A stretch of DNA of 64,000 bases from an uncultured Acidobacteriota bacterium (GTDB lineage: Bacteria > Acidobacteriota > Vicinamibacteria > Vicinamibacterales > UBA2999). The notes under the pieces were generated by a model that was not told where the DNA came from, did no database searches, and worked only from the letters and a program-made list of their open reading frames with translations. Shown here piece by piece: positions 42,068 to 64,000 of the stretch. The position numbers were made by a program, and so were the translations under genes. Within the stretch, counting starts at the first letter, position 1, and each line of letters begins with the position of its first letter. Location of the stretch: the NCBI GenBank assembly GCA_963779175.1, contig CAVZXA010000007.1, forward strand, positions 281,086 to 345,085. The letters are read 5' to 3'.

Positions 42068-42080
42068 CGATCGTTGTCTT

Positions 42081-42095
42081 TGGGGTCAGACCCCA
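42081..42095. repeat. REP-like palindrome TGGGGTCAGACCCCA
   Basis: Intergenic, just after the TonB receptor stop. Confidence 0.72.
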
Positions 42096-42128
42096 TGCTG
42101 GGCGGGGCCAGACTTTCAGGAGTGCCGT

Positions 42129-43465
42129 ATGACGGATTTGCGCAAGTGGCAGATAGGACTGACGTCGATGGTCGTGCTGACGTGCGCGATGGCGCCGGCC
42201 GCCAGGCAGGCGCCGACGGGCGTCGACTCCGGCGTCACCCTGGCCGTGGCCGGACGTCACAACGCCGCGCCGTGGGTGGCGTCGTCGGGACGGTTCGTCG
42301 CCGTCACGTGGGGCGCCGGCCTCGACAGCGCGTGGGACATCTACGTGGCGACAAGCGCGGACGAGGGCCGGACCTTCTCCGCGCCGGTGCGCGTCAACGC
42401 CGTGGCCGGCGATGGCCGCGTGAGCGGCGAGATTCCGCCGCGCGTGGCGCTCCATCAGCCGGCGGGCGCCGCCGCAGCCCGAGGTGGTCGTGGCCTGGAA
42501 CGCGAAGGACCAGGGCACCGAGATCAAGATCGCGCGCAGCCGCGACTTCGGCCGGACGTTCGCACCGCCGGCGTCGCTGCAGGCACCAGGCGCCGCCGGC
42601 GACCGCGGCTGGCACGCGCTCACGCTCGACAGTCGCGGCGTCGCGCACGTGGTGTGGCTCGATCACCGCGGCCTCGCCGAAGCATCGGCGCGCGCCGACG
42701 CGAAGGCGGGCGCGGGCGGCCACGGCAGCGGGGATCACGACGGCGTGGCGATGGCCCAGAAGTCGCGGCTGCACTACGCGACGTTCGGCGATCGGGCGGC
42801 GCCCGAGCAGAAGCTCGCCCCGGGCGTGTGTTATTGCTGCAAGACGGCGCTCGTGGCCACGCGCGGCGGCATCCTCGCGGCGTGGCGCCACGTGTACGAC
42901 GGCAACATGCGCGACATGGCGTTTGCGATTCTGGGCACGCCTGGTGCGGCTCGCCAATCCCGCCCGGCTCAGCACCGACGGCTGGGCCATCAACGGGTGT
43001 CCCGACGACGGCCCGGCGCTCGCCGTGGATGCCGGCGATCGTGTGCATGCCATCTGGCCCACGGTGATTCCGGGCGACCAGCCGATCGGCGCGCTTTTCT
43101 ACGCCTCGAAGGCCGGGACGGCGCCCGCGTTCGGCGCCCGCCAGCGGGTGGCCACGCTCGGCGCCCCCAAGCCGTCGCATCCCCAGGTGGCGGTCGATGG
43201 CACCGGCCATCTGTTCGTGGCGTGGGACGAGATCCTGAGCGGCGTCCGCGTCGCGGCGTACGCTGAGGGCACGAGCGGGCCTGAGGGCAGCCTGCGCCTC
43301 GCTGCGCCGACGCGGATCGCGCCCACCGGCCCGACGCAGTATCCGGTGATGGCGCCGCTGGCCCGCGGCGTCGTTGCCGCCTGGGTGAGCGGGCCCCAGG
43401 GCACGGCGGTGATTCGCGTGCGACACCTGGTCGCAGGCAACGCGGCCGCGACGGCCGCACGATAG
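42129..43465 (+). CDS. Exported BNR/sialidase-like protein with Cys motifs; frameshifts near 42478 and 42945
   Basis: SADEGRTFS and SRDFGRTF Asp-boxes; VWLDHR; GVCYCCKT; WRHVY..NMRD; GWAINGCPDDGP. Confidence 0.8.
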
Positions 43466-43474
43466 GAGACAGCC

Positions 43475-44158
43475 ATGACACGACTCCACATTGCAGGTGC
43501 ACTGCTCTTCGCCGCCGGCCTCCTCGCCGGCCCCGCCCGAGCGCAGGAACACGCGGGCCAGAAGCCAGCGGCCATGGGCCACATGGACCACAAGTTCGAC
43601 GACCCCGAACGCTACGCGAAGTCGTTCGACGATCCGGCGCGTGACGCCTGGCAGATGCCGGCGCGCGTCATCGAGGCGCTGGCACTGAAGCCCGGGCAGA
43701 CGGTGGCGGACATCGGCGCCGGTACCGGCTACTTCAGCGTGCGCCTGGCGCGGGCCGCGGCGGCGCCGAAGGTCTTCGCGGTGGATCTCGAGCCGAAGAT
43801 GGTCGAGCACCTCACGAAGCGGGCGGCAGCCGAAGGCCTGAAGAACATCACCGCCGTGCAGGCCTCGGCGGCCAGCCCCAACCTGCCGGAGCCGGTCGAT
43901 GTCGTGCTCGTCATCGACACCTATCACCACATCGCCGACCGGCCGGCCTATTTCGCGGCCCTGAAGTCGAAGCTCACGCCCGGCGGACGGCTCGCCATCG
44001 TGGACTTCAGGAAGGGCGGTGGCGGCGACGGCCCGCCCGACGCGTTCCGGTTCACGCCTGAACAGATCAGCGGCGAATTGGCGCAGGCGGGATATGTGCT
44101 CGACCGCTCGCACGACTTCCTGCCGCGCCAGCACTATCTCGTCTATCGCACCAAGTAA
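43475..44158 (+). CDS. Class I SAM-dependent methyltransferase with signal peptide
   Basis: Signal ending ARA-QEH; RDAWQMP; VADIGAGTGYF; DTYHH; GGRLAIVDF. Confidence 0.88.
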   Translation: MTRLHIAGALLFAAGLLAGPARAQEHAGQKPAAMGHMDHKFDDPERYAKSFDDPARDAWQMPARVIEALALKPGQTVADIGAGTGYFSVRLARAAAAPKVFAVDLEPKMVEHLTKRAAAEGLKNITAVQASAASPNLPEPVDVVLVIDTYHHIADRPAYFAALKSKLTPGGRLAIVDFRKGGGGDGPPDAFRFTPEQISGELAQAGYVLDRSHDFLPRQHYLVYRTK

Positions 44159-44173
44159 GCGCCCGGAGGCTTC

Positions 44174-45050
44174 ATGACCCGTTCGTCGCTCGCGCTCCTG
44201 TTCTCTCCTGGCTCCTGGCCGCGCCGGCCGCCGCGCAGGCGCCCACAGCCGGTGACGATCCGCTTTGCGATGACCGCCGGGGCGATCGCCGCGTGACCTG
44301 CGCCTCGAGTGTCACCGGCGTGGGCACGACGAAGTCCGACGGTCAGCATCATCGACGCCCGCCTGTACGTGTCGCGGGTGCGGCTCGTCAAGGCCGACGG
44401 CGGCGAAGTGCCGGTCACGCTGACGCAGGACGGCCTGTGGCAGCTCGACGACGTGGCGCTGCTCGACTTCGAGAATGCCACGGGCAGCTTGCGCCAACGG
44501 CACCGAGCAGACCCGCGATGTCATCGAGGGCACGGCGCCGGCCGGGGACTACACCGGCGTGCGCTTCGAGGTCGGCCTGCCGTTCGAGAAGAACCACCGC
44601 GAGTCAGACGCTGCAGCCGTCGCCGCTCAACCTGAGCCGGCTGTTCTGGAGCTGGAACGCCGGCTACAAGTTCATGCGGCTCGACATCAAGCAGCACCGG
44701 GCAGCCGCGCGGCTGGCTGGTGCACCTGGGCAGCACCGCCTGCACGCCCGACCGGCAGCCCGCTCGATCGGTGCCGGTGTCGTGCGCGAACCGCAACGTG
44801 GTCGACGGTGGATCTGCCCGCGTTCTCGGCGACGCGCGACGTGGTCGAACTCGACTTGCCTCGCGCTCTTCGCGGCGAGCAACGTCGACACCAACACCGA
44901 CAAGACCGCGCTCGGCTGCATGTCGGGCCGGCAGCGACCCCGAGTGCGCACGGCCTGTTCGGGCAGCTCGGGCTGGCGCATCGCCGACAAGGCCGGCCGG
45001 TCCGCAGCAGGTCTTCCGCGTGAAGGCCGGCCGCCACGCTGGCGCGCTAG
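44174..45050 (+). CDS. mbnP: MbnP-family copper-binding protein; multiple frameshifts
   Basis: Pieced across frames: [59 protein letters not shown] (WxW), HLGSTAC, CANRN, GCMSG..DPEC. Confidence 0.82.
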
Positions 45051-45060
45051 GAGTCCGATC

Positions 45061-46583
<1,523 letters not shown>

Positions 46584-46585
46584 CC

Positions 46586-47060
46586 ATGGCGGGCACCATC
46601 CGACACCTGCTGCTGGTGGCGTCGATTGTCTGTGGCGTGGCGGCGATCGCTGAGGCGCGGCAGACGCCAGCGCATCAGCAGGCCGCCGATCTCGCGCACC
46701 AGCTCATGAGCCCGTTCTGTCCGGGCAAGCTGCTGGCCGATTGCACCTCGCCGAACGCGGGGGAGCTGCGCCAGGCGATTGAAGGCCGGCTCACCACCGG
46801 CGAAAGCGTGGATGCGATCAGGGCCGACCTCGTGCAGCAATACGGCCCGGAGATCCTCGGCGCGCCGCCGGCCCGCGGCGTGGGCCTGCTGGCGTGGCTG
46901 GTGCCGGCGCTGCTCGGTCTGGCCTCGGCCGCGGGCATCGGCTGGAAAGTGGCCCAGGCCGTGCGCGCGCCGGCCGCGGCGCCGGTCGCGCTGGCGGCGG
47001 CCGGGGCGAGATGCCGGCGCGCTGGCGCAGCTCGAGGACGAGCTGCGCGACCTCGACTGA
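46586..47060 (+). CDS. ccmH: CcmH/NrfF-like cytochrome c biogenesis protein; frameshift near 47010
   Basis: Signal; LMSPFCPGKLLADCTSPNA..LRQAI..GES..YGPEILGAPPARG..LLAWLVP; ends LEDELRDLD. Confidence 0.75.
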
Positions 47061-47091
47061 CGCGCGCGGCGCTTCGCGCTATCCTGATTCG

Positions 47092-48022
47092 GTGATCCTG
47101 CCCGACGACGACCTCGACGCCATCGCGCGGCGGGTCGAGACGCGGCTCGCGATCCTGCTGCCGCCGGCCTACCGCGAGACCTACCAGGACGTGCAGCCGG
47201 TGTCGATGGGCTCGGCCCCGCTGCGCCGTGGTGACGACGGGCTCGTCGCGTGGGACCAGATGTGGGACACCTTCTGCGACCTGGCGATGGCCGGCGGACC
47301 GCCGCACAAGGGGCGGTGGCTCGCGCCCGGCAGCGCCGCGGAGGTGGCCGCCGACCCGGAGCGCTACGACGAGGTGGTGCAGGAGATTCGCCGCGGTCTG
47401 GGCCTCGTCACCGGCCTCGACATCCGGCCCTCGAGCGATCCGGGCTGGGTGCCGGTGGTGTGTTTCGGTGAGGCGATGGCCGGCTGGCTGACGCGCGCGA
47501 TCGTGATGGAGAACGTGGCCGTGCGGCTGCGCCGCGCCGTCGATCGACCTGCCGGCGGCGCCCGACTTCCGCGTCGAGCGCGAAATCAAGAACGTGGTCA
47601 CCGTGCTGGCCAAGACCTGCCACTACTGGATCGACCACATGCCGTACAGCCAGCAGGCGCAGATCACGGCGCTGCTGTGGGCGATGGACCGCGAGGCCCC
47701 GCTCGTCATGCCGCCGCACGCGGGCGCCGACGGTGCCGCGACCGACGCGGCGGCACCGATGGCCGAGGCCCTCACTCGCGCCACCGGCCTCGCGTCGGCG
47801 CCGGCCACGGTGCCGGGGTGGGTCGGCGTGGAGTGCGCGTCGGTCGCGCGTGCCGTGTGGCTGATGCGCGCGCTGGTCACCGAGAACCTCGGCGCGCGTC
47901 GCGAAGACACGACGGTGCTGGTGGCGGTGAATCCGGCGGTCGATCCGGGCGGGCAGCGGGTGGTGGCGGCGGTGGGCGCGCTGCACCGGTTGGCGGCCGC
48001 GGCCGGGGGCGCGATACCATAG
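47092..48022 (+). CDS. Conserved hypothetical protein with internal domain duplication; frameshift near 47540
   Basis: ILLPPAY..VQPVSMGSAPL..WDQMWDTFCDLAMAGGPPHKG; ENVAVR; EIKNVVTVLAKTCHYWIDH. Confidence 0.7.
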
Positions 48023-49680: not shown

Positions 49681-50670
49681 CTACTGCGACACGTCGAACG
49701 CGCCGTCCGTCACCGTGCGCGTCGGCGGCATCAGCCCCTGGGTGAGCGTCGTGGCCGTGAAGGCGAACGTGCCGGCGACGCGGGTCGGTGTGGCGGTGGT
49801 GAGGGTCAAGGTGCCGCTGCTCCCGGGGCCAAATGGGTTCACGCCCCACGACGGGCCGAAGCCCTGAAGTAGCGTGAAGAAGACGGGCGCGGAGCCGCCG
49901 GCCGCGTGCGTTCCGAGAGCCAGCGGTCCGGTGATGGACAGCGAAATTCCGTCGCCGACGGACGAGGCAGTCAGTGTCATGAGCTGCACTCCTGCGGCAG
50001 TCGACATGCCGCTGCTGGCCAGCGGGCTCGCCGACTCCCACCGCGTCCCGTCCACGGTGGCGCGGACGGTCCCCCGCGTCAGCATGGTGATGCCGACGGA
50101 TCCCGAGGGCAGGCTCGGCAGCGACGGGCTCGTGGGGGTGTTCCTGCCGCCGCAGGCGACGGTCAGGGCAGCAACGGCAGCAAGCGCGAAGAGCGGACGG
50201 GGACTGACGCCCGGCCCCGAGACGGCCGTGAACGAGAACACGCCAGCTACGCGCGTGGGCGTATGGGTCGTCACGGTGACCGTGCAGGTACTTCCGGTCT
50301 CGAAAGGGCTGGCCAACCAAAAGCGGGTCGCGAGGTTCTCCGAGACGGAACAGCTCACCAACGAGGCGAGGTTCAGGGTGTGCGTGCCCACTGCCCCAGG
50401 CAGAATGAGAGAGATGCGCAGGCCGCCGAGTGACGCCGAGCCCGAGAGTGAGGTGAGGCCGGCAAGGCCGCCGAGCAGGGCCGTCGGCGTTGTTGCTTCC
50501 CAGCTTATGCCATCCACTACAGCGCTCATCGTGCCCCGGCTCAGCGAGGTCCCGGGCGCGGTCGGAGTTGGTGGTGCAAGCCCCGCGGGACCAGGACTCG
50601 TGGGGGTGTTGCCGCCGCCGCAGGCGACGGTCAGGGCAGCAACGGCAGCAAGCGCGAAGAGCGGACGCAT
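49681..50670 (-). CDS. Lipoprotein made of two tandem homologous units, each with a signal/lipobox
   Basis: MRPLFALAAVAALTVAC recurs internally; both units have RGT[MV]xAxVDGxxWE and TPTRVAGxFxFTA. Confidence 0.75.
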   Translation of the reverse strand: MRPLFALAAVAALTVACGGGNTPTSPGPAGLAPPTPTAPGTSLSRGTMSAVVDGISWEATTPTALLGGLAGLTSLSGSASLGGLRISLILPGAVGTHTLNLASLVSCSVSENLATRFWLASPFETGSTCTVTVTTHTPTRVAGVFSFTAVSGPGVSPRPLFALAAVAALTVACGGRNTPTSPSLPSLPSGSVGITMLTRGTVRATVDGTRWESASPLASSGMSTAAGVQLMTLTASSVGDGISLSITGPLALGTHAAGGSAPVFFTLLQGFGPSWGVNPFGPGSSGTLTLTTATPTRVAGTFAFTATTLTQGLMPPTRTVTDGAFDVSQ

Positions 50671-50789
50671 CGACGACTCCCTGAGGGTGGAGGCGCCGTC
50701 AGCCTAACATGCCGCAAAGCGCGCGCACAGCGTGTGGTTGTGCCACCTGGTGCCCAACGGATCGCGCTCATTGCGGCGCAGCAGATTCG

Positions 50790-50820
50790 GTCCGACGGCG
50801 GCGCATGGCCACCGTCGGAC
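50790..50820. terminator. GC-rich hairpin downstream of repeat protein A
   Basis: GTCCGACGG...CCGTCGGAC inverted repeat; no clear U-tract. Confidence 0.4.
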
Positions 50821-50846
50821 GCATCGTTAGGTATGTTGACGCTAGC

Positions 50847-53800
50847 CTAGGGCACGACCACCGTCTGCGCCGCCGTCGGCGCACTGGCGCCGCAGGGATT
50901 CACGGCGCTGAGGGTGAAGGTGTAGGCGCCAGGTGGCACGGCGGCGGACAGCCCGCGCGTGGGCAGCGGGAACGTGCCGTTGAAGGCCCCGGAGACGTTG
51001 AGCACGAAACCGGTCGTGGCGGGGCCGCTCGCGGCCGGAATCCCACAACAGATACAGGGTGTTCCCGACGTTATACGTCAGGAAGTTCTCGGGCGCCGAG
51101 GGCGCACCCGAACAGGGCCCGGGAACGTGAGCGTTACCGGATTCGACGACGGGCTCGAGCCCGAGCCATTCGCGGCGCGGACGGAGAACGTGTAGGTGCC
51201 CCCGGGGACGCCGTTGAAGGTGAAGCTGTCCGTAAGTCCAAGGGGCAGCGACGCTGACAGCGTGCCACTGACGTCGAGGATGACGCCGCTCGGCGTGCCC
51301 CCCCCGAACGTGTTCCGCCACGAGAGCGCGACCTGCTGACCGTTGACGAGGCCGGCGAGACCGGTGGGCGCCGACGGGGCGACCGGCTGGTTGACGAAGA
51401 CGCGAATCTCGTTCGAGGCGGCGCTTGTCTGCCCGCCGGCCAAGGTTGTGATCCGAAGATAGAACGCTCCGTTGGGGGCGCCGAAGGTGAACACCGGCAT
51501 CGCACTACCGGTGGGGATGGCCGCCAGCACCTGGCCGGGGGCGACGCCGCCCTCCATCACGTAACTCGTAGGTGCCGGCCCGGTCGTGGGCGGGGTCCAC
51601 GTGAGTGTCACGGTGTTGCCGCTGACGACGCGAGCCAGCAGGTTGGTCGGCGGCTGGGGCACGATGAGCGCAGCGCCGACGGTGATCGTCACCGTGGTCA
51701 CGTTGCTCTGGCCGTTGAGGTTGCTGGCGCGGTAACTGAACACGTCGGTGCCGCTGAAGCCCCCGTTGGGCGTGTAGACGAAGCTGCCGTTGCTGGTGAG
51801 CGTCACGCCGCCATGGCTCGTGGGTGCTATCAGGGTGGCCTGCAGCGCCAATCCGCCGGGCGACACGTCGTTGCCCAGCACGCCAGGCGCATTCACACTG
51901 AGCGTCGTCGCGAAGGGCGTCGAGTAGGCATCAGCCACCGCCGTCGGCGCGTTGGGCGCCTGCACGGTGATGCTGACGGTGGCCACGTTGCCCGGCCCCC
52001 CGCTATTCGACGCGCGATAGGTGAACGTGACCTGGCCGGAGAAGCCGGACGCCGGCGTATAGGAGAAGCTGCCGTTCGTGTTGAGCGTGAGGCTGCCGGT
52101 GGCGGGTCCGCTGTTGACGGAGGCGCTCATGCTGCCGCCGCCATTTGACGAGTCATTGGCGAGCAGCCCTGGCACGGCGACCGTCAGTGTCGTCGCGTGC
52201 GGCGTCGTGTAGACGTCGTCGACGCTCGTCGGGGGCAGGACGGGTGCACACGAGCCGGTGACCCGCACGCGGTAGTCGCCTATGGCGTCGAGACCGCTGT
52301 CAGCAGTGCCGACGACGACCGTGTATGCGCCGGACGCTGGCGCGGTGAATGTGGTGGTCACGCTGGGGGCATTCCAGGTGTGGGTAACGAGCTGGCCGCC
52401 CGGTCCGTAGATGCGAATCCACGGCAGGAACGAAGGATCCGTTGTCGACGGCAGGGTCGCGGCGGTCAGCGACACTGTGCCGCCAGTGCAGGCGGAGAAC
52501 GTCCAAGGGTCCAGATCGCCGAGCGCGATGGCGCCGAAGCTATCGACGTTCTCCACCAACGCACCACCCTGATCGCCCGGGCTCTGGAAGTAGCCGCTCG
52601 GGATGCGTAGGGGCGTGAGGGTGTAGTCGTAGATGGCGTCGAGGCCGCTGTCGTTGGTGCCGACGACGACCGTGTAGGTGCCGGGACTCACCGCCGTCAC
52701 CTCGACCTGGGCAGCGAGGACGTTCCACGAATGGTCGAGCAGTGCGCCGGTGGGACCATACACCCGGATCCAGGGGTAGGCGGAGGGGTCGGGGCTGGTG
52801 CCGAGTTCGCCAATGGCGAAGATCAACCGTTTGTTGGGTGCGGTGGTGGTGATGGTCCAGGGGTCGAGGTCGCCGAGGGCGATCCGCCCGGTGTGGTTGC
52901 CGCCGTTGGTGAGGGTGCCGCCTTCGTCGTTGGCGGGCACGGTGAACGACGCGGGCATCCGGACGACCGTGAGGGTGTAGTCGTAGACGGCGTCGAGGCC
53001 GCTGTCGTTGGTGCCGACGACGACCGTGTAGGTGCCGGACTCACCGCCGTCACCTCGACCTGGGCAGCAAGGACGTTCCACGAATGGTCGAGTAGCGCGC
53101 CGGTGGGACCATAGACCCGGATCCAGGGGTAGGCGGAGGCGTCGGGGCTGGTGCCGAGTTCGCCGATGTCGAAAATCAGCCGCTCGTTGGGCGCGGTGGT
53201 GGTGATGGTCCAGGGGTCGAGGTCGCCGATGGTGATGCGTCCGGTGTGGTTGCCGCCGTTGGTGAGGGTGCCGCCTTCGTCGTTGGCGGGCACGGTGAAC
53301 GTTGCGGGGATCCGAACGACCGTGAGGGTGTAGTCGTAGATGGCGTCGAGGCCGCTGTCGTTGGTGCCGACGACGACCGTGTAGGTGCCGGGACTCACCG
53401 CCGTCACCTCGACCTGGGCGGCAAGGACGTTCCACGAATGGTCGAGTAGCGCGCCGGTGGGACCATAGACCCGGATCGCAGGGGTAGGCGGAGGCGTCGG
53501 GGCTGGTGCCGAGTTCGCCGATGTTGAAGATCAGCCGCTCGTTGGGTGCGGTGGTGGTGATGGTCCAGGGGTCGAGGTCGCCGAGGGCAATCCGCCCGGT
53601 GTGGTTGCCGCCGTTGGTGAGGGTGCCGCCTTCGTCGTTGGCGGGCACGGTGAACGACGCGGGCATCCGGACGACCGTGAGGGTGTAGTCGTAGACGGCG
53701 TCGAGGCCGCTGTCGTTGGTGCCGACGACGACCGTGTAGGTGCCGGGACTCACCGCCGTCACCTCGACCTCGGCAGCAAGGACGTTCCACGAATGGTCGA

Positions 53801-54777
53801 GTAGCGCGCCGGTGGGACCATAGACGCGGATCCAGGGGGTAGGCGGAGGCGTCGGGGCTGGTGCCGAGTTCGCCGATGTTGAAGATCAGCCGCTCGTTGG
53901 GCGCGGTGGTGGTGATGGTCCAGGGGTCGAGGTCACCGATGGTGATGCGTCCGGTGTGGTTGCCGCCGTTGGTGAGGGTGCCGCCTTCGTCGTTGGCGGG
54001 CACGGTGAACGTTGCGGGGATCCGAACGACCGTGAGGGTGTAGTCGTAGATGGCGTCGAGGCCGCTGTCGTTGGTGCCGACGACGACCGTGTAGGTGCCG
54101 GGACTCACCGCCGTCACCTCGACCTGGGAAGCAAGAACGTTCCACGAATGGTCGAGTAGCGCGCCGGTGGGACCATAGACCCGGATCCAGGGGTAGGCGG
54201 AGGCGTCGGGGCTGGTGCCGAGTTCGCCGATGTCGAAGATCAGCCGCTCGTTGGGCGCGGTGGTGGTGATGGTCCAGGGGTCGAGGTCGCCGAGGGCAAT
54301 CCGCCCGGTGTGATTGCCGCCGATGGTGAGGGTGCCGCCTTCGTCGCCGCCGCTCACCGCGAGCCCGCCGCCTGGAATCCTGATGGCCGTCACCACGTAA
54401 CTGCCCAGGTCGTTCTGGCCAGAATCGTTGGTAGAGACCCACACCGAGTAGGTGCCGGCTGCAGCCGCGGTGATCTCGACCTGGGCGGCGGCGACGTTCC
54501 ACGCCTGTGTGAGGAGCGTGCCGTTGGGAGCAAACAGGCGGATCCACGGCGTGAACGTCGGGTCGGGTGTCCCCGTTTCGCCTAGGTCGACCAGCAGCCG
54601 CTCGTTGGGCGCGGTGGTGGTGATGGTCCACACATCCACTTCGCCCGCAGAGCTGATGGTGCCAGCGTGATTGCCCCCGTTCGTCAGCGCGCCCTGCGCC
54701 GCCGCGAGGCCCGGGAGCCCCAGCGCCGCTGCCATCACCATCCACACTCGAATCACCGCTGATTTAACGTCGGTCAT
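50847..54777 (-). CDS. Secreted repeat protein A: 7 PPC-like beta domains, 2 Big_9-type Ig domains, 3 FN3 domains; several frameshifts
   Basis: Signal ending AAA-QGALTNGGNH; ~118-aa units (GDLDPW..PWIRVYGPTG..GTYTVVV); GLLAND/NGSFSY; PQPPTNL..VTLTW; ends VVP*. Confidence 0.85.
52574..54344 (-). repeat. Five near-identical ~354-bp intragenic tandem repeats
   Basis: gtcgaggccgctgtcgttggtgccgacgacgaccgtgtaggtgccgg recurs about every 354 nt. Confidence 0.9.
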
Positions 54778-54830
54778 GTGCCCTCGCGCAGGCCGTTCGC
54801 CGCCAACGGCTGAATTGATCCCGTACGCCA

Positions 54831-54864
54831 TCCTATTGCGCAGCGCGGACCCGAACCCTATCAC
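54831..54864 (-). promoter_or_regulatory. Putative ECF promoter of repeat protein A
   Basis: Minus strand GTGATAGG-gttcgggtccgcgc-TGCGCAATAGGA; same blocks and spacing as 58035-58068. Confidence 0.7.
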
Positions 54865-54972
54865 TCGCGCAGAAACTCTCTCGCGCGGGCGCCCACAGGC
54901 CCTCGAGGCGTGCCTGGCGAGGTAGAAAGGCTGCGCGGAGCTGGACTTGCGGGGTGTTGGAGCGGACGTGGG

Positions 54973-57464
54973 TCATGGCGCGAGAGCTGCCAGGTCCTCG
55001 CGCGCGGCGATCAGATACGGCGACGGCGCGCCCGGCTGCTTCTCGAGCACGCGCACGGCGTCCTCCAGCATGGGCCTGGCGGCTGCGGGGCGCTTCTGGC
55101 GATGCAGCACGCGGCCCAGTAGCGACTTGGCAATGCCGACGTTGACATGGTCGGCTGCCAACACCTCCGCGTAGATCCCCAGCGCCTGACGCAGCGTCTG
55201 CTCGGCGGCCGTCAGGTCGTTGCGGATCAGGTGCAGGCGGCCCAGATTCGCCATCACCACGCCTTCCTGGAAGTGGGTGCCGGCCGAGGCGCCGTAGCCG
55301 GCAATGGCGCGACGGAAGGCCGTCTCGGCGGCCGCGAAGTCGTTCCGGCGCAGGGCGTTCAGGCCGATCGCGTTGAGCACGAACGCCGTGCGCCGATGAG
55401 TGGGGCCGTAGGTCCGTTCCTGCGTCGCGAGGGCCTGACGCAGCAGCGGTGCGCCTTCCTCGTGTTTGTCCTGACGGGCGAGCACCTGGGCCAGGGTGGT
55501 CTGGGCGGACGCCGTTTCCGGATGCGCGTCGCCGTACCGCTGCAGGAAGATCGCCAGAGCCTCCCGGTCCACCGTCTCGGCCTCGGCGAACCGGCCCCGC
55601 GACGACAGGATGGCGCCTTGATTGATCAGCAGGTGACCGATGTCAGGATGGGTCGGGCCGCGGGCCTCGCGCGTCACGGCCAGCGCGCGCTGGTTGACGG
55701 CCTCGGCGGCATCCATGTCGTCCATGTAGAAGCGTGTTTCGGCCAACGCGGCCATTGCCTGGGCGCGTTCGCCAATCGCCGCCGGCAGCGCCTCGTAGCG
55801 GCGGACCGCGTCTTCGAGACTGGCCGCGGCCGTGGCGTATTCGCCTTTCTCGCGCTGGACGCGGCCGAGCACGGTCAGGGCGTTGACGAGTACCGGGTGA
55901 TCCGCTGCCCCGGCGCGTTCGACGGCGCCACGAGCGTCGTGCACAAGGGTCTCGGCCTCGGGCAGGCGCGCCTGATCGAGCCGCAGCGAGGCCAGCGCCA
56001 CCATGCTGGTGGCCACATCGACGTGGGCCGGGCCAAGATGGGCGCGCCGCGCGTCGAGGGCGTCGTTGAGCAGACGGTCGGCCAAGTCGAGCGCCCCGAG
56101 TTCGTGGTGGATGCCGCCCAGGGTGTGGAACAACTCGGCCTGCACCAGCGGGTCGGCCGACAGACCGCGCGCTTCCTGCACGCCGCGCTCGAGCAGCGTC
56201 ATCACGCGCAGCTCGTTCGGCGGGGCCGAGCCGTTCTCGCCGCCGCTGAAGACGCCGAGCACGAAGCGCAGCAGCCGGGCGCTGCGTGCCGCTTCAGCCT
56301 GAGTCTGTGCTCGCGAGACGGCCAGGCGTTCGGCGTAGAACCAGCCGCTGCCCGCGGCCATCATGATGGCCACAGCGGCCGCCGCGAGGGCGCGCCGCTG
56401 GCGGCCGACGAACTTGCGCGCGCGGTACACCGCCGAATCCGGGCGCGCCGCCAGCGGGCGACCGACGAGCAGTGCCTCGAGGTCACGCCGCATCGCGCCC
56501 GCCGTCGCGTAGCGGCGTTCGGGGTCGGGATGTGTCGCGGTGTCGCACAGGACGACGAGGTCGGCGGCGCCGGCCGGCCCCGCGCAGTCGCGCCGAACCA
56601 GGGCTGCCGGGCGCTGCCATCGGTGTCGGCTGCCAGCAGTTCGCGGAGCACGACCCCCAGTGAGTAGACATCGGTCTGCACGCCCGACGGGGCGCCGGCC
56701 AGCTCCTCGGGCGCCGCGTAGCCGGGGCTCAGGAAGCGCAGCGGTCCGGTGTGAGGGCTGAGGGCATCCAGGCTCTCGAGCTGGCGGGCGATGCCAAAAT
56801 CGAGGAGCTTCGGCGTGCCGTCGGCGGTGACCAGGATGTTCGACGGCTTGATGTCGCGATGCACGACCAGGCGTCCGTGCGCGTACTGCACCGCGGCGCA
56901 GATCTGTCCGACCAGTCGCAGGCGTCCGGGAATGTCGGTGCCCTGGGTGCGGCAGTGCTCGTCGAGCGTGCGGCCCGCGACGTACTCCATCGCAAACCAC
57001 GGCGTGCCGCCCTCGAGCGTGCCGGCGTCGATGATGCTGGCGATGGCCGGATGATGCAGTTGCGCCAGCGTGCGCTGTTCGCGCCAGAAGCGCTCGCGCC
57101 GATCGGGCGACACCCAGGCATCGCGCAACAGCTTGATGGCGACGCGGCTTCCGATGTCGTCGCGCTCGGCGAGATGCACCACGCCGGAGCCGCCTTCCCC
57201 GAGCCGCGCGGTGAGCCGATAGGGGCCGATGCGCGCGCCCACGCCGGCCGAGTCGGTGCCGTCGAAGAGGTCACGCGCGACATCGGCGGTCGACGTGTCG
57301 AGCACCGAGTCTTCCCGGTCTCCGGCGATGAGGGCCTGCACGTGCGCCAGCAGGTCGGCGTCGCCGGCGCAGGCCTTGGCGACGTAGGCGGCGCGCTCGC
57401 CCGGCGGCAGGTCGACGGCGGCGTGGAAGATCTGCTGAACGTGGTCCCAGCGGGCGGCGTCCAT
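54973..57464 (-). CDS. ECF-associated membrane Ser/Thr kinase with extracytoplasmic TPRs; frameshift near 56570
   Basis: MDAARWDHVQQIFHAAV..ER N-terminus; GEGGSG, VAIK, HRDIKPSN, DFG, YAAPE; YRARKFVGR + TM; TPRs with LGPAH/GDAHP motifs. Confidence 0.9.
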
Positions 57465-57476
57465 CGATTCCCCTGG

Positions 57477-58025
57477 TCAGCGGCGGCTGAGCTCGGAGTT
57501 CAACCAGGCGCGCGCCACTCGCCAGTCGCGTAACACCGTCACCTCGGAGACGCCCACGACCTCGGCGATCTCGCCCATGCTCAGGCCACCGAAGAAGCGG
57601 GCTTCGACCACCTGCGCCTGGCGCGGACTGACGTGGGCCAGTTCGACCAGCGCGTCGTCGAGCGCCAGGACCCGCGACGGGGTGGGCGGGCCGAAGATCT
57701 CGTCGTCGAATTCGACCAGCGCGGCGTCGGCACCGGCGGGGCGTTTGAGCGCGTTGCGGCGGCGAGCCGCCTCGACCAGGACCTGCCGCATGGCGCGTGC
57801 CGCGATCCGCTTGAAGTGCAACGGCGATGTCGATTCGAAGTCTGGCGAGCGCGCCAGCTTGAGCCACGCTTCGTGCACGAGTACCGTCGGACTCATCGTG
57901 CGGTCGGCCGGGCCGCGCCCGACGCGCGACGCCAGACGGCGCAACTCTTCGTAGGCGGCGACGTAGTGCGCGTCGAGCGTGTCGCGAGCGGACTCGGCGT
58001 CGGGGGCGGGGTGCGAACGATCCAT
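57477..58025 (-). CDS. ECF sigma factor, TIGR02999 / kinase-associated type
   Basis: YEELRRLA; RTMSPTVLVHEAWLKL; ARAMRQVLVEAARRRNALKR; VVEARFFGGLS..EIAEVVGVSEVTVLRDWRVARAWL. Confidence 0.93.
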   Translation of the reverse strand: MDRSHPAPDAESARDTLDAHYVAAYEELRRLASRVGRGPADRTMSPTVLVHEAWLKLARSPDFESTSPLHFKRIAARAMRQVLVEAARRRNALKRPAGADAALVEFDDEIFGPPTPSRVLALDDALVELAHVSPRQAQVVEARFFGGLSMGEIAEVVGVSEVTVLRDWRVARAWLNSELSRR

Positions 58026-58034
58026 CGGCGTAGG

Positions 58035-58068
58035 GTGATAGGTCTCGGACGGCTTTTGCGCAATAGGA
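58035..58068 (+). promoter_or_regulatory. Putative ECF promoter of repeat protein B
   Basis: GTGATAGG-tctcggacggcttt-TGCGCAATAGGA; matches the 54831-54864 motif. Confidence 0.7.
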
Positions 58069-58165
58069 GTCTAGAGCAAGACGCGGCCGGCCAGCGCAGG
58101 AAGTCTGCGGCGCCACGAGGTCGTGTCTTGGGGCTTTTTGTTCTGCCCCCACCTGGAGTTCTGAG

Positions 58166-61100
58166 ATGCACATTCGCTCCTTCGTCGTGACGATGTTGGC
58201 CGGGTTGGCGGTGTTGTTGTCGGTGCCGGGGAACGCCCGAGCCCAGGGCGCCATCACCAATGGCGAAAATCACACCGGCACCATCGCCGTCAGCGGCGGA
58301 ATCGACCAGTGGACGTTTTCGGCCAACCAGGGCGATTCGATTGTGCTCAATCTCGGCGAGGTGCTGCGGGTGCCCGATTCGGGGTTCTCTCCGTGGATTC
58401 GGCTGTATGGTCCGACGGGCGCGCAGATTGGCGGCGACTCCTTCTACGGGGCGCTGGTGGCGCAGATTGCCACGGTTGCTCCGCTCACCGGCACCTACAC
58501 GGTGCGCGTGGCGGCCGGCTATCCGGGGTACACAGCGGTGGGCGACTACCGGCTCATCCTTGCGCGCGTGCCCGGCCAGCCCGTGGTTCCCGGTGGCGAT
58601 CAAGGCGGCCCGATGACCAACGGGGTGAATCACGTCGGCCGGATCGAACTCGGGGACCTGGACCAGTGGACCTTCACGGCCAATCAAGGCGAGAGCCTGG
58701 TCGTGGAGATCGGCGAAATCGCCGTCGGTTCGGGCGTGCCCGACCCGAACTTCTACCCGTGGATTCGCCTCTACGGCCCGACTGGTGTCCAGATCGGCGG
58801 CGACAGTTTCTACGGTGCGGCCGTGGCGCAAGTGGCCACCACGGCGCCGCTCACCGGCACCTATACGGTGCTCGTGGCTGCCGGCTACCCGAACTACGCG
58901 GCCGCCGGCGACTATCGTCTCGTGCTGGCGCAGGTGCCGGGCACACCCGTCGTCGACGAGGGCGACCATGGCGGGCGCCTGGCCAACGGGGTCAATCACG
59001 ACGGCCGCATCGAGGTCGGCGACCTCGACCAGTGGACGTTCACGGCCAATCAAGGCGAGAGCCTGGTCGTGAGCGTCGGCGAACGGGTGGTGGGACCGGG
59101 TGTGCCCGACCCGGGGTTCTATCCGTGGATCCGTCTCTATGGTCCGACGGGCGCGCAGATTGGCGGCGACTCCTTCTACGGGGCGCTGGTGGCGCAGGCC
59201 GTGACCGTCGCCCCCCTGACCGGCACCTACACGGTGCTGGTGTCGGCCGGCTACCCGAACTACGCGGCCGCCGGCGACTATCGCCTGATCCTGGCGCAGA
59301 TGCCGAGCCGACCCGTGATCGAGACCGATGACGACAACGATCACGATGGCCCAATGGCCAACGGGGTGAATCACGTCGGCCGGGATCGAACTCGGGGACC
59401 TGGACCAGTGGACCTTCACGGCCAATCAAGGCGAGAGCCTGGTCGTGGAGATCGGCGAAATCGCCGTCGGTTCGGGCGTGCCCGATCCGAACTTCTACCC
59501 GTGGATTCGCCTCTACGGCCCGACTGGTGTCCAGATCGGCGGCGACAGTTTCTACGGTGCGGCCGTGGCGCAAGTGGCCACCACGGCGCCGCTCACCGGC
59601 ACCTATACGGTGCTCGTGGCGGCCGGCTACCCGAACTACGCGGCCGCCGGCGACTATCACCTCGTGCTGGCGCAGATGCCGGGCGACCCGGCCGTGGGCG
59701 AAGGCGACCACGGTGGACGGATGACCAACGGAGGCAATCACGACGGCCGCATTGAGGTCGGCGACCTCGACCAGTGGACGTTCACGGCCAATCAGGGCGA
59801 ACGCCTGGTCGTGAACATCGGCGAACGGGTGGTGGGACCGGGTGTGCCCGACCCGGGGTTCTATCCGTGGATCCGCCTCTATGGTCCGACGGGCGCGCAG
59901 ATTGGCGGCGACTCCTTCTACGGGGCGCTGGTGGCGCAGGCCGTGACCGTCGCCCCCCTGACCGGCACCTACACGGTGCTGGTGTCGGCCGGCTACCCGA
60001 GCTACGCGGCCGCCGGCGACTATCGCCTGATCCTGGCGCAGATGCCGGGAAGCCCGGTCGTCGACGCGGGCAATCATGGCGGCCCCATGGCCACCGCCAC
60101 CGACTATCCCGGCCGGATCGAACTCGGGGACCTCGATCCGTGGACCTTCTCGGCCAACCAGGGTTCGGCGCTCACCGTGACCATCACCGAGGTGCCGGTC
60201 GGCCCCGGCGTGCCGGATCCGGCGTTCTATCCGTGGATTCGTCTCTACGGCCCGAACGGCGTGCAAATCGGCGGCGACAGCTTCTACGGAGCCTCGGGTG
60301 CGCAAATCATCACCACGGCGTCGTTGACCGGCACCTACACGGTGCTCGTGTCGGCCGGCTACCCGAACTATCCGGCGGCGGGCGACTATCGGCTGCGGGT
60401 GCTGGGCGCCGCTGCACCGCCGACGCCACCCAACAGCACTGACGACGTCTACGCGACGCCGCAGGGCAAGGCGCTCGCCGTCGCGGCCCCGGGCGTGGTG
60501 GCCAACGACAACCTGGCGGGGGGCGCCACGGTGGCCCTGGTGACGGGCCCGGCGCGCGGCACGGTGACGCTGAATGGCGATGGCAGCTTCACGTACGTGC
60601 CCAACGGCAATGCCGGAGGGGTCGACGCGTTCACCTATCGCGCTGCCAACGCGTCTGGTCCCGGCAACATCGCCACCGTCCGGATCACGGTTGGCGAGAC
60701 CACGCCGGGGGCACCGAGCGGGTTGGCGGCCGCGCTCATTGCCGGCAATGACGTGACCTTGCGCTGGCTGCCGCCGGTTGACGTCGCCACGCCCACCGGC
60801 TATGTCCTCGAGGCCGGGGTGACCCCGGGCGAGGTGCTGGCCTCGGTGCCGACTGGCAGCGCGCTGCCCGTCTTCAGCTTCCCGGCGCCGACCGGCGTGT
60901 TCTGGGTCCGAGTCCGCGCGATCGTGGACGGTGAACTCACCGCACCCTCGAACGACGTCCGCGTGCACGCGAACGTGGTGGCACCGCCGTCGGTTCCGGC
61001 CAACCTGCTCGGGGCCGTGGACGGTTCGGGCCTGGCTCTGGGCTGGCGAAACACCTACGACGGGGGCGCGCCGACGGGGCTGGTCGTGGATGTGGCCGGC

Positions 61101-61517
61101 CCGGTCGCCGGGTCCGTGGCCGTCGCCCTCGACGAGCGGTTCACGTTCGCCGGGGTGCCAGCGGGCACCTATACGTTCACCGTCCGCGCCACCAACGCGG
61201 GTGGCGTGAGCGCCGCCTCCAACCCCGTGACGCTCACATTCCCCAACGGGTGCAGCGGCGCGCCGCAACCGCCGGAACGGTTCCTGGCGCAGGCTGTCGG
61301 GAGCACCGTGCAGCTGCTTTGGGATCCGCCCAGCGCCGGTCCAGCGGCCACCAGTTACCTGTTGACCGCCTCGGGTACTGTCGCCGGGACGATGCCGACG
61401 ACGAGCCGGATGCTGCGGCGCGACGTGGCCCCCGGCACCTACACGCTGTTTGTGACAGCGGTCAACGCGTGCGGGGCCAGCGCCCCGACACCGCCGGTCA
61501 CCGTCGTGGTGCCATGA
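58166..61517 (+). CDS. Secreted repeat protein B: 6 PPC-like domains, 1 Big_9-type Ig domain, 3 FN3 domains; frameshift near 59385
   Basis: Signal ending ARA-QGAITNGENH; ~122-aa units (GDLDQW..PWIRLYGPTG..GTYTVLV); tail colinear with protein A, ending VVVP*. Confidence 0.87.
58606..60080 (+). repeat. Four ~366-bp intragenic tandem repeats in ABAB order
   Basis: Units 2/4 contain EIGEIAVGSGVPDPNFYP; units 3/5 contain GERVVGPGVPDPGFYP, nearly identical at DNA level. Confidence 0.88.
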
Positions 61518-61683
61518 CCTGGTTTCCCGGAATTTTACGCATAGGTCAGGTAAGGAGAGCCGACCGCCGGTTCCGGTGGGCTCTGGCGGCCCCAGACCGA
61601 TACTCTCCGTAGACCTGTTGTGCGAAAATACGACCGCGCCGGTGCCTCCCGCAGCCGCGCCGCGTAGTTTGGAAGGAGTCGAG

Positions 61684-62898
61684 ATGTCCTTTTGGCGTAA
61701 TCGAGTGTCGATCGGAATGCTGCCGCTGCTGGCGGCTGGTATCACGTTCGTGGTGGCGCCTCGGAGCGCCGTCGCGCAATCGGATTCGAAGGCGAAGGAC
61801 GCGGTGGAGACCTGCCCGATGCCCTTCGGCACGATCGCCATCAACGAGCCGCACGAACAGTCGTGGGTCTGGCTGCGTTCGTATCAGCTTGGCTCGCCAT
61901 CATCGCTGCTGCGCACGTTCGCGCAGCGATCGAACTGCTTCGTCGTCGTCGAACGCGGCGTCGGCATGCAGAACATGAAGCAGGAACGTGAACTCGCGGC
62001 AGCTGGCGAGGTTCAGGAAGGCCAGAACATCGGCAAGGGCCAGATGGTGGCCGCCGACTACATGCTGACGCCAGCCATCCAGGGCACCGACAACAACGCC
62101 GGCGGTGTGGGCGGTGGAGCGCGGCTCCCCGGGCGTCTCGGCGGCATCATCGGCGGCGTCAAGAAGAAGGAAGCGCAGACCAGCATCACGGTCGCGTCGG
62201 TCCGTACGGGTGTGCAGGTCGCTGCGGCAGAGGGCGCGGCGACCAAGCGCGACTTCGCCATCGGCGGAATCGGCCTGGGCGTTGGCGCTGGCGGCTACAC
62301 CAGCACATCGGAAGGCAAGATGGTGGCGGCCAGCTTGCTCGACAACTTCAACAACGTCATTCAGTCGCTGAAGACCAATCCCAATGTCAGGCCGATGACG
62401 GCCGACCGGCTGGCGCGCATCACCTCTGGCGAGCCCGAGGCGGGGGGCAACTTCGAAAAGGGCGCAATGGTTGAGGTGAAGATGAATGGCACCAAGCTGC
62501 TGTCGTCGTCCAACGCCACCTCGGTCGCGCTGGCGACGATGCGCGCCGGCGAGACCATGATGTACATGGGCGAGCGGCAGGGCGACTTCCTGCGCGTGCA
62601 GCGCGGCAGCGCGCAGGGCTGGGTGGAGCAGGTGCTGGTGACGCAGTCCAGCGCCAAGGTCGCCAGCTCCGGTGGCGCCACCGCCGGCGGCGTGATGAAC
62701 GAAGGCGATGTCATGGCCCCCAAGATCGACGGCGTGAAGGTGCTGCGGACGGCATCCGACGCCGCGGCGGTGGTCGCGACACTCAAGCGCGGCGAAGACG
62801 TCGTCTACCTCGGCGAAGAGAACGGCACCTTCATCAAGGTGCAGGCGTCCGGGGGCGAAGGCTGGGTGAAGAAGGCCCTGATGGCTTCGAAGCAGTAG
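61684..62898 (+). CDS. CsgG/HfaB-family exported protein with two C-terminal SH3b-like domains
   Basis: Signal; SNCFVVVERG..MKQERELA..GQMVAADY; QVAAAEG; LLDNFNN; repeated tail ..GEDVVYLGEENGTFIKV..GWV. Confidence 0.8.
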   Translation: MSFWRNRVSIGMLPLLAAGITFVVAPRSAVAQSDSKAKDAVETCPMPFGTIAINEPHEQSWVWLRSYQLGSPSSLLRTFAQRSNCFVVVERGVGMQNMKQERELAAAGEVQEGQNIGKGQMVAADYMLTPAIQGTDNNAGGVGGGARLPGRLGGIIGGVKKKEAQTSITVASVRTGVQVAAAEGAATKRDFAIGGIGLGVGAGGYTSTSEGKMVAASLLDNFNNVIQSLKTNPNVRPMTADRLARITSGEPEAGGNFEKGAMVEVKMNGTKLLSSSNATSVALATMRAGETMMYMGERQGDFLRVQRGSAQGWVEQVLVTQSSAKVASSGGATAGGVMNEGDVMAPKIDGVKVLRTASDAAAVVATLKRGEDVVYLGEENGTFIKVQASGGEGWVKKALMASKQ

Positions 62899-62921
62899 CC
62901 CGCCCCGGCCGGAAACCATCC

Positions 62922-62952
62922 ACGGCGGCCCCGCCTCGGCGGGCGCCGCCGT
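62922..62952. terminator. GC-rich hairpin between convergent genes
   Basis: ACGGCGGC...GCCGCCGT inverted repeat. Confidence 0.4.
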
Positions 62953-62964
62953 CGTCGTGTACGA

Positions 62965-64000
62965 CTACTGCTGCCGGCCCGACAGGGTCGCCGAGAGCGC
63001 CTCCACCGCGACGCGCAGCCGCGCCAGCTCTGCGTCCTGCGCGCTCAGCCGCGCGTCGAGCGAGACGCGGTCGCGCTCGAGCCGCTGCACTTCGGCCAGC
63101 AGCAGGGGCGGCAGCAGGTGGTAGCGCACCGTCTGGGGCTGCCCGTCGGCATCGCGCACGAGCAGCTCCGGGAACCGTTCGGCCACGTCTTCGGCAATCA
63201 GGCCGTACTGGACGAGCTGCGACCCGTCGTCGAACTCGGGTTTGTAGACGAAGCTCACCGGCGTGAGGGCCAGCAGTTTCGCGCGGGTCGTATCGCCGAG
63301 CGGCGTGATGGCGTCCTTGAAGCGCGCCGACGACGTGGTGGTGCCCAGGCGGCCTGCACCGTTGACGAGCACGGGGATGCCGCCCGACGCCGTGGCGCCG
63401 CTGATGCCCGAGATGTAGGCCGCCGTCTGGCCCGACCCGATGCGGATCGTGCTCGCCTCGGAGCCGCTGCTGGCAAGACCGCCCACGTAGATGTTGCCCG
63501 AGCCGGTCGTCAGGCCGAGGCCGGCGTTGAACCCGATGCCGATGTTGTCGGTGCCCGTCGTCACCTCGGTGAGAGCGGCCGGTCCGACCGCCGTGTTGAA
63601 GCCGGCGATGGTGGCGGTGTCGAGCGCTCCGACGCCGATGGCCACATTGTTGGAACCCGTGGTGTTGACATTGAGGGCGTGGCGTCCCAGGGCGGTGTTG
63701 GCCGAGCCCGTGGTCGTCTGCTGCATGGCCATCCAGCCCACGGCGGTGTTGTTGTTGCCGGCGTGAGTGTTGAACATCGCGCCGCGCCCGACGGCCGTGT
63801 TGAAACTCCCGGTGTCGCTCGCCACCATCGCGCCGTAGCCGATCGCGGTGTTCTCGCTGCCGGAGTCGTTGAACGACAGCGCCTCGCGTCCGACCGCCGT
63901 ATTGCTCTCGCCCGTGACGTTCAGCTCCATCGCGTAGCGGCCGATTGCCGTGTTCGACGAGGCCGTCGTGTTCGAGCGGAGTGCGAACTCGCCCATGGCC
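62965..64000 (-). CDS. Tail-fibre-like beta-helix protein with C-terminal Peptidase_S74 intramolecular chaperone (5' end outside window)
   Basis: 14-aa NTA[VI]G..A[LM] repeats; TSSARFKDAI..PVSFVYK..YGLIAEDV..FPEL..VRY; coiled-coil tail. Confidence 0.85.
   Translation of the reverse strand, partial: AMGEFALRSNTTASSNTAIGRYAMELNVTGESNTAVGREALSFNDSGSENTAIGYGAMVASDTGSFNTAVGRGAMFNTHAGNNNTAVGWMAMQQTTTGSANTALGRHALNVNTTGSNNVAIGVGALDTATIAGFNTAVGPAALTEVTTGTDNIGIGFNAGLGLTTGSGNIYVGGLASSGSEASTIRIGSGQTAAYISGISGATASGGIPVLVNGAGRLGTTTSSARFKDAITPLGDTTRAKLLALTPVSFVYKPEFDDGSQLVQYGLIAEDVAERFPELLVRDADGQPQTVRYHLLPPLLLAEVQRLERDRVSLDARLSAQDAELARLRVAVEALSATLSGRQQ

Follow-up and report, generated by a model that had tools for sequence, protein, structure and literature searches.

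An ECF43 sigma factor and a PknS-like kinase between two genes for PPC-repeat proteins, with a rare shared candidate promoter, in an uncultured acidobacterium

Two described systems pair an extracytoplasmic function (ECF) sigma factor of the ECF43 type with an adjoining Ser/Thr kinase. In EcfK/PknS of Xanthomonas citri, an ECF43 sigma factor is joined by a TPR receptor Hanks kinase, PknS, which is the protein of PDB entry 9EED (as described in the parts of PMC13147305 that we draw on), and the output is a type VI secretion system. In EcfP/PknT of Vibrio parahaemolyticus, also ECF43, the regulon of the sigma factor confers polymyxin resistance (Iyer et al. 2020, as cited in the sections of PMC8999054 and PMC7826278 used here). 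Here we describe a pair of this type from a different phylum, known from its genes alone: it belongs to an uncultured soil/freshwater member of the Vicinamibacterales (Acidobacteriota) and lies in a stretch of 64,000 nucleotides (nt) of contig CAVZXA010000007.1 (assembly GCA_963779175.1), hereafter the window. The sigma factor and kinase genes sit between two paralogous genes for secreted proteins built of PPC-type repeats. We put at roughly 65% the reading that the two regulators together drive both flanking genes, whose products would be non-catalytic. The candidate output thus differs from those of the Xanthomonas and Vibrio systems. While this type of signalling is known, we found neither the cargo family nor the candidate promoter described: literature on ECF43 kinases and acidobacterial ECF sigma factors, taken without the original EcfP publication and the supplementary files of PMC13147305, yielded no account of a PPC-cargo module or of a promoter for the clade.

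The sigma factor has the hallmarks of its type. It scores 160 bits against TIGR02999 (cut-off 126.15), matches PF07638 at 1.8e-38, and is one of about 15 TIGR02999/ECF43 genes in this genome, labelled G000 (10 contigs, 5.59 Mb). As in EcfK/PknS, the kinase gene follows directly, starting 12 nt after the sigma stop codon on the same strand, and no anti-sigma gene lies between or beside the two; the other neighbour of the sigma gene is the divergent PPC gene. In region 2.2, TMSPTVLVHEAW aligns with LQ[PTA]TALVHEAY of 21 other TIGR02999 sigma factors. Here, as in EcfP, the acidic DAED motif is missing: none of its four positions holds D or E, and S/T residues stand there instead, with SPTV (STTA in EcfP) under the QxTA column and the Thr kept, as it is in EcfK. 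The published consensus for ECF43 at this place is QTTA, or STTA in EcfP, in which the second Thr accepts the phosphate and stands in for the acidic motif (PMC13147305 and PMC8999054, in the portions covered here). Judged by that consensus, the Thr of SPTV would correspond to the published phospho-Thr.

The kinase is PknS-like. Pkinase and TPR_12 match at 5.8e-38 and 4e-54, and the catalytic motifs VAIK, HRDIKPSN, DFG and SPGYAAPE are all kept. The layout is that of PknS, at nearly the same length (833 amino acids (aa) there): an 80-aa N-terminal extension, a Hanks domain, one membrane helix (here ALAAAAVAIMMAAGSGWFYA, the single hydrophobic helix when read by eye) and TPRs, extracytoplasmic in PknS. 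The TPR part differs, with three repeats stated for PknS and about 440 aa here. The best solved relative is 9eed_A (E 3.3e-35), whose alignment begins at residue 3 and therefore covers the N-terminal extension, whereas PknB, StkP and other solved kinases align only from about residue 80. As a separate observation, the 12-nt spacer between sigma stop and kinase start (57465-57476) holds four extra bases (TCC and G) in contigs of related strains from two metagenome runs, X1 and X4.

Table. Features of the locus and breaks in its reading frames (positions in the window)
Feature	Position	Strand	Description
Left paralog	50847..54777	-	Sec signal peptide, 7 PPC-fold repeats of ~118 aa each, 2 Big_9, 3 FN3-like segments; stop codon TAG at 50847-50849
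Candidate ECF-dependent promoter of left paralog	54831..54863	-	TGATAGG-N14-TGCGCAATAGGA; ends ~50 nt upstream of ATG 54777; starts ~110 nt past kinase stop
PknS-like receptor Ser/Thr kinase, ~830 aa	54973..57464	-	Pkinase, membrane helix, TPR
ECF43-type sigma factor, 182 aa, intact	57477..58025	-	TIGR02999, PF07638
Candidate ECF-dependent promoter of right paralog	58036..58068	+	TGATAGG-N14-TGCGCAATAGGA; starts 10 nt beyond ECF start codon, on the opposite strand; ends ~100 nt upstream of ATG 58166
Right paralog	58166..61517	+	Sec signal peptide, 6 PPC-fold repeats of ~122 aa each, 1 Big_9, 3 FN3-like segments
CsgG + SH3 gene	61576..62898	+	CsgG family fused to SH3; likely start ATG 61681
Left-paralog break	near 53835	-	C5 vs C4 in other repeats
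Left-paralog break	near 53478	-	extra C inside TGG
Left-paralog break	near 53036	-	GG vs GGG
Left-paralog break	near 51115	-	within CCCGGGCCC
Left-paralog break	near 51040	-	not a simple homopolymer change
Right-paralog break	near 59370	+	GGG vs GG in other repeats
Kinase break	near 56577	-	in a G run (coding strand)

This gene set agrees in most points with an earlier note on the same DNA. The note had placed a TIGR02999-type ECF and a TPR membrane kinase between two paralogs with a common layout (signal, 6–7 PPC-like repeats, Ig, three FN3), followed by a CsgG/SH3b gene, and profile matches, domain scans and coordinates bear this out. Its likening of the pair to sigma factors that have a neighbouring kinase and no anti-sigma factor also fits, and the RTMSPT in which it saw Thr/Ser residues kept can be read in the sigma translation. 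Its description of the paralogs as outward-pointing needs qualifying: the left paralog shares its strand with the sigma factor and kinase genes and lies downstream of both.

Each paralog is preceded by the same rare sequence. The motif TGATAGG-N14-TGCGCAATAGGA occurs twice in the 5,585,140 bases of G000, once upstream of each paralog and in the orientation of that gene, while base composition predicts about 5e-6 occurrences for its 19 specified bases. The core TGATAG-N17-CGCAA is found twice against 0.68 expected from composition over the whole genome, and the 11-mer TGCGCAATAGG likewise has two occurrences in the genome. The boxes of the two copies are identical yet their spacers agree in just 4 of 14 bases, which points to selection on the boxes rather than to the residue of a duplication. 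In the 400 nt ahead of each of 13 other ECF43 genes of G000, a search that allowed up to two mismatches gave two weak matches, one of them (C6:92552) with a single mismatch, and none like the two sites here. Downstream of the motif in the divergent spacer, contigs from X1 and a further run, X3, carry one extra C at 58132.

The arrangement of sigma factor and PPC gene recurs in other genomes. We searched 60 relatives with three repeats of the right paralog and extended the scan to one genome per species (26 loci) and to metagenomes (41 loci). Among the 60 relatives, the repeat protein is present in 2 of 18 genomes of the same genus (G013 and G017), with a weak match in one other genus. In both congeners the ECF gene (69% identity) and the kinase gene (59–60%) are divergent from a single PPC gene; neither locus has a second paralog, and the layout with two paralogs is seen in G000 only. 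The other flanks of the G017 module also differ from those of G000, with genes for an NHL protein, a macro-methyltransferase and a MacB-type permease. An ECF and a kinase-TPR gene divergent from a PPC gene appear again at L020 (on the same contig as G017), L024 and L086. At L085 the same divergence is seen with a cargo open reading frame (ORF) that carries PKD/Calx-beta ahead of its PPC repeats and has its first codon about 115 nt away from that of the ECF gene; the kinase gene there runs past the contig end, and its TPR content was not scanned. At L023 a divergent ECF gene stands at the contig edge. Three further loci (L022, L056, L057) have a different ECF gene, downstream of the PPC gene and on the same strand.

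The sigma factors next to PPC genes form a clade. In a tree of 22 TIGR02999 sigma factors, which leaves out two frame-split ones of G000, all eight that are divergent from a PPC gene fall on one side of a branch with support 100/99. The 14 others, namely eleven G000 paralogs, L025b, L022 and L057, fall on the opposite side. Because G017 and G013 are near-copies, the eight represent about six independent lineages. Within the genus, ECF sequences of at least 70% identity occur in G013 and G017 only (2 of 18 genomes, both with a PPC gene); a relative with 57% identity and a kinase-TPR gene occurs in G012, and the rest reach at most 53%. With the same ECF clade divergent from PPC genes in seven other loci, the linkage is no accident of G000 on the synteny check that the earlier note had proposed.

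The motif recurs along with the sigma clade. When aligned, the spacer between the ECF gene and the right paralog shares the block TGATAG-N15-TTGCGCAA with its G017 and G013 counterparts, and a degenerate core, TGAYRG-N17-CGCAA(T), is found in the spacer between ECF and cargo genes of G017, G013, L023, L085, L086 and G012, each time by the ECF start codon and pointing at the cargo. In a sister subclade, TGTCCRT-N16-CGAATTGTCT takes the same place beside the ECF start (L024 at 4265, L025 at 8648, L031 at 6182). Across the 71 loci fetched (656 kb, both strands), TGTCCRT-N16-CGAAT has three matches, all at those spacers, and none in G000. The pattern TGAYRG-N17-CGCAA has 12 matches in the same loci: seven at spacers between ECF and cargo (L017 and L020 being the same site), one at L036, one at L026 inside an open frame that leads into the PPC repeats of that locus, and three that are apparently chance.

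Two of these loci separate the motif from its usual company. At G012 (L097, G012:C374, 3786-5240), an ECF of the same clade (57%), a kinase-TPR gene and TGACGG-N17-CGCAAT are divergent from a gene for a 245-aa Thr/Ser-rich lipoprotein without Pfam-like features; since the motif is kept beside this unrelated cargo, it appears to travel with the sigma factor and not with the cargo. At L036, on a Gemmatimonadaceae contig, TGACAGG-N16-CGCAA (8660-8687) lies about 75 nt upstream of a gene for a PPC-repeat lipoprotein, with no ECF gene within 8.6 kb upstream; a sigma factor may act there in trans, or the match may be due to chance.

What the module would deliver is a family of repeat proteins. The two paralogs are 41–48% identical as protein, and a whole-genome search finds PPC-type repeats of G000 in them alone. 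Their repeats show the PPC-like patterns G.I..GD.D.W.F and GTY.V, with Pfam PPC (PF04151) scores of 27.5 and 29 bits that barely exceed the cut-off of 25.9 (L086 reaches 83 bits). The fold is clearer. Modelling one repeat from 19 aligned copies, a check named in the earlier note, gave an eight-stranded PPC beta-sandwich with a predicted local distance difference test (pLDDT) score of 87, whose best PDB matches by Foldseek (E about 1e-4, template modelling (TM) scores 0.60–0.70) are the C-terminal domain of Tk-SP subtilisin, the collagen-binding domains of ColG/ColH, the PPC domain 5sv5 of a Bacillus collagenase, and PliG. Identity to solved PPC domains is 14–18%.

ColG/ColH and other PPC domains share this beta-sandwich fold, the sequence motifs and Pfam PPC matches above the cut-off with the paralogs, and also differ from them. 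They come in one to three copies at the C-terminus, whereas the paralogs have six or seven in tandem. The paralogs also have no peptidase: as the earlier note had remarked, Pfam and NCBIfam find no catalytic family in either of them, nor in the G017 homologue. Throughout the clade the PPC array is the common feature of the cargo and the additions vary, with Big_9 and FN3 here and in G017, Laminin_G_3 in L086, and eight PKD plus Calx-beta in L085; all are beta-sandwich domains of the binding type. We recognised no anchor or outer-membrane export signal in the paralogs. The natural reading of this domain content is that they are secreted or surface-exposed multivalent binders. Six to seven beta-sandwiches resembling collagen-binding domains, followed by Ig-like and FN3 domains, make it most likely that they bind a polymer or surface rather than catalyse. 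Collagen, the ligand of ColG/ColH, is not expected in the habitat of this bacterium. The display or adhesin role that the earlier note had assigned draws on the same domain content and goes further than it allows.

These observations suggest a working model. By analogy with EcfK/PknS and EcfP/PknT, the extracytoplasmic TPR domain of the kinase would receive a cue, and the kinase would transfer a phosphate to the sigma factor, onto the conserved Thr in the SPTV of region 2.2. This would supply the negative charge found there in canonical ECF sigma factors; an adjoining Ser/Thr kinase is likewise the presumed activator of EcfP. The resulting holoenzyme would start transcription at TGATAG-N17-CGCAAT upstream of both paralogs, and both products would be exported by Sec. 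The left paralog comes after the kinase gene on the same strand, so that read-through from the sigma-kinase operon could add to the activity of the paralog's own promoter. The earlier note had spoken of an inducible module that turns on both paralogs. The rare motif shared by both upstream regions, the synteny and the ECF clade argue for the common control of the two genes; its inducibility is a point that we infer only.

Several observations weigh against this reading, and we take them together with the alternatives on which they bear. The left paralog, the kinase gene and the right paralog are not single frames in this assembly, with five, one and one breaks, a fact that the earlier note did not mention. 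The locus could be decaying in this strain: some or all of the breaks would be real, at a minimum the left paralog, and perhaps the kinase gene too, would be a pseudogene, and the module would be a relic. Seven breaks in 12 kb are many, and those near 53478 and 51040 are not simple homopolymer changes. Five of the seven fall in the 3.9 kb of the left paralog, a density above that seen elsewhere, so this gene is the most doubtful of the three and could be a real pseudogene.

The pattern of the breaks nevertheless looks technical for the most part. Four of the seven (53835, 53036, 59370 and 56577) are changes in the length of a G or C run. The repeat-to-repeat distances in the left paralog, 354, 355, 355, 353 and 354 nt, fit three single-base insertions or deletions (indels), and five of its seven repeats are about 94% alike as DNA and for that reason hard to polish. 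The stretches between breaks are free of in-frame stops and keep a third-position GC of 0.83–0.85, and the homologues, of 1114 aa in G017 and 1008 aa in G013, each occupy one frame. For the kinase break, Logan contigs from freshwater-metagenome runs X1 (581 nt, 11 differences) and X4 (290 nt, 4 differences) match the window at 98–99% identity, with one additional base behind 56577 that brings the kinase gene back into frame. An intact form of the kinase gene thus exists in very close relatives, which is no proof of an error in this strain; the restoring base has all of the depth in X4 (3.31/3.31) and about half in X1 (3.48/7.58), and no contig with it was found in X2 or X3.

Other parts of the assembly also contain indel errors. 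The essential gene valS is split over two frames and falls below its cut-off, a second class-I tRNA synthetase lies in three frames (the two genes are at G000:C3:803434-805363 and G000:C5:582401-584953), and 2 of the roughly 15 ECF genes are frame-split (C5:76596-77142 and C5:382115-382652). Completeness is 84% for only 10 contigs, although rpoB, rpoC and secA are intact. Because essential genes elsewhere are also split, we regard assembly error as quite probably the source of most breaks at this locus, and a relic as rather unlikely. Indel errors spread through this assembly will also touch other findings made from it.

Less likely still is that the regulators merely adjoin the paralogs. The two-box element would then belong to a housekeeping promoter or be bound by another regulator, and the targets of the ECF/kinase pair would lie elsewhere. 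Usual ECF promoters have AAC/CGT boxes. The motif is unlike these, we found no published ECF43 promoter for comparison, and another regulator could bind it. At four of its sites the palindrome TTGCGCAA is present, as might fit a repressor that binds as a dimer, and the L036 copy stands upstream of a PPC lipoprotein gene without an ECF gene within reach. The palindrome is not kept at the other four sites, however, which read CTGCGCAA, TCTCGCAA, TGGCGCAA and TTCCGCAA; what all eight conserve is the asymmetric half and the fixed 17-nt spacing, which fits a -35/-10 promoter without symmetry better than the binding site of a dimer. Moreover, the motif changes with the ECF subclade, stays with the ECF when the cargo changes, as at G012, and occurs nowhere else in G000. 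These properties argue for control by the adjoining sigma factor.

The comparison with known systems and the synteny have gaps of their own. A PDB sequence search with the ECF returned 0 matches, and the putative phospho-Thr is placed by the published consensus. L025 has its ECF gene beside a PPC gene without an adjoining kinase gene. L031 also lacks an adjoining kinase gene, and its ECF gene is 2.8 kb from the PPC repeats, although the cargo start is probably nearer to it given the extra N-terminal domains. Most PPC-repeat genes of other phyla lack a nearby ECF gene. In all, some 20 loci in which the flank upstream of the PPC-repeat gene runs to several kb are without one (L027, L029, L028, L034-L036, L038, L039, L041, L043, L044, L060, L063-L065, L069, L074, L075, L081). 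Most of these are from Verrucomicrobiota, Gemmatimonadota or metagenome contigs; L027 and L029 are acidobacterial and have more than 9 kb of upstream flank. The linkage between ECF and PPC genes therefore holds for one branch of the repeat family and not for all of it.

It is similarly improbable that the PPC-repeat protein is, instead of or besides an output, a third, extracytoplasmic sensor component that captures a ligand and presents it to the kinase TPR domain, the module thereby controlling a co-receptor of its own. Proteins are the usual binding partners of TPR domains, and PPC repeats are the one feature that all cargo of the clade shares while accessory domains vary, but G012 keeps ECF, kinase-TPR and motif next to an unrelated lipoprotein, and L025 and L031 keep ECF and PPC gene without the kinase. 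A predicted complex of the kinase TPR domain with two PPC repeats scored 0.00, without a verdict, and we draw nothing from it.

A broader proposition is tentative, and we hold it at rather less than even odds: that one ECF43 clade of the Vicinamibacterales and related acidobacteria has co-diversified with PPC arrays, uses a promoter code of its own (TGAYRG-N17-CGCAAT or TGTCCRT-N16-CGAAT, depending on the subclade) and forms an inducible module of binding proteins. On this view the PPC array may, in addition, feed back on the TPR sensor. Acidobacteriota carry many ECF43/kinase pairs, as the count in G000 illustrates, and almost nothing is known about their targets; an acidobacterial expansion of paralogs is noted in the part of PMC3174227 used here. 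The locus offers a small testable prediction, comprising two promoters, one sigma factor, one kinase and one cargo family, with a promoter that shifts with the sigma subclade. If the proposed control is real, it would supply a promoter rule for assigning the regulons of the clade in metagenomes, and would cast PPC-repeat proteins as regulated binders of surface or matrix. If the clade has indeed co-diversified with its cargo, this would be the first experimentally approachable regulon and promoter for an abundant, unstudied group of regulators in uncultured soil bacteria. Nothing in this locus alters how ECF43 sigma factors are known to be activated.

Ten neighbours of other ECF43/kinase pairs of G000 were scanned, and five are of extracytoplasmic type: FN3+FG-GAP, propeller+FN3+PKD, NHL, S74/YadA and an M61 peptidase (loci given are G000:C9:116120-118168, C2:92041-94380, C3:1566243-1567589 and C9:682851-684398). 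Of the remaining five, four are housekeeping enzymes and a DUF420 protein, and the fifth is without a Pfam match. The G017 module, too, adjoins an NHL protein.

The gene beyond the right paralog encodes a CsgG-family protein (PF03783, 1.2e-13, 51 bits, model positions 41-193 of 210) that also matches SH3_3. It differs from curli CsgG in having two SH3 domains fused at its C-terminus and no lipobox cysteine, its signal peptide ending ...APRSAVAQSDS when read by eye. No csgA, csgB, csgE or csgF was recognised among the neighbouring genes in the Pfam scan, which was not aimed at them. The earlier note had listed this gene after the paralogs. With it as query, tblastn found only the gene itself in the genome and nothing in the 3 + 26 + 41 related loci, and we do not retain it as a member. 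It may be co-transcribed with the right paralog, the sole element between the two being a stem-loop at 61556-61584.

Scans for other signals gave little. A search for sigma-70 consensus promoters returned 0 sites, Rfam had 0 matches in 50000-64000, and the three terminator-like sites in 50600-63100 are not above the counts in shuffled sequence. A look-up of RNA runs for 54900-58200 found none that covers it. G+C of the window is 70%.

Several neighbouring genes stand apart from the module. Next to the left paralog, at 49681-50707, ORFs overlap on both strands: the plus-strand frame (49874-50707) matches no family and repeats ...PPQATVRAATAASAKSGR... internally, and the opposite frame has a weak match to DUF6252 (4.2e-6). 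Further away, 39330-47095 (+) encodes an outer-membrane barrel (OMP_b-brl_4/TonB-dependent receptor), a piece resembling MbnP and a single ORF in which CCP_MauG and CcmH matches are combined; this is apparently a copper-related cluster of the MbnT/MbnP/MbnH type broken by frame changes. On the far side of the CsgG gene, a minus-strand gene (62965-64000) that continues past the window end encodes N-terminal NTA.G-type repeats and a C-terminal Peptidase_S74 intramolecular-chaperone domain (4e-8), as found in phage tail fibres and endosialidases. A paralog of this protein, with S74 and a YadA-head repeat, is encoded divergently from another ECF43 gene at G000:C2:87293-88858.

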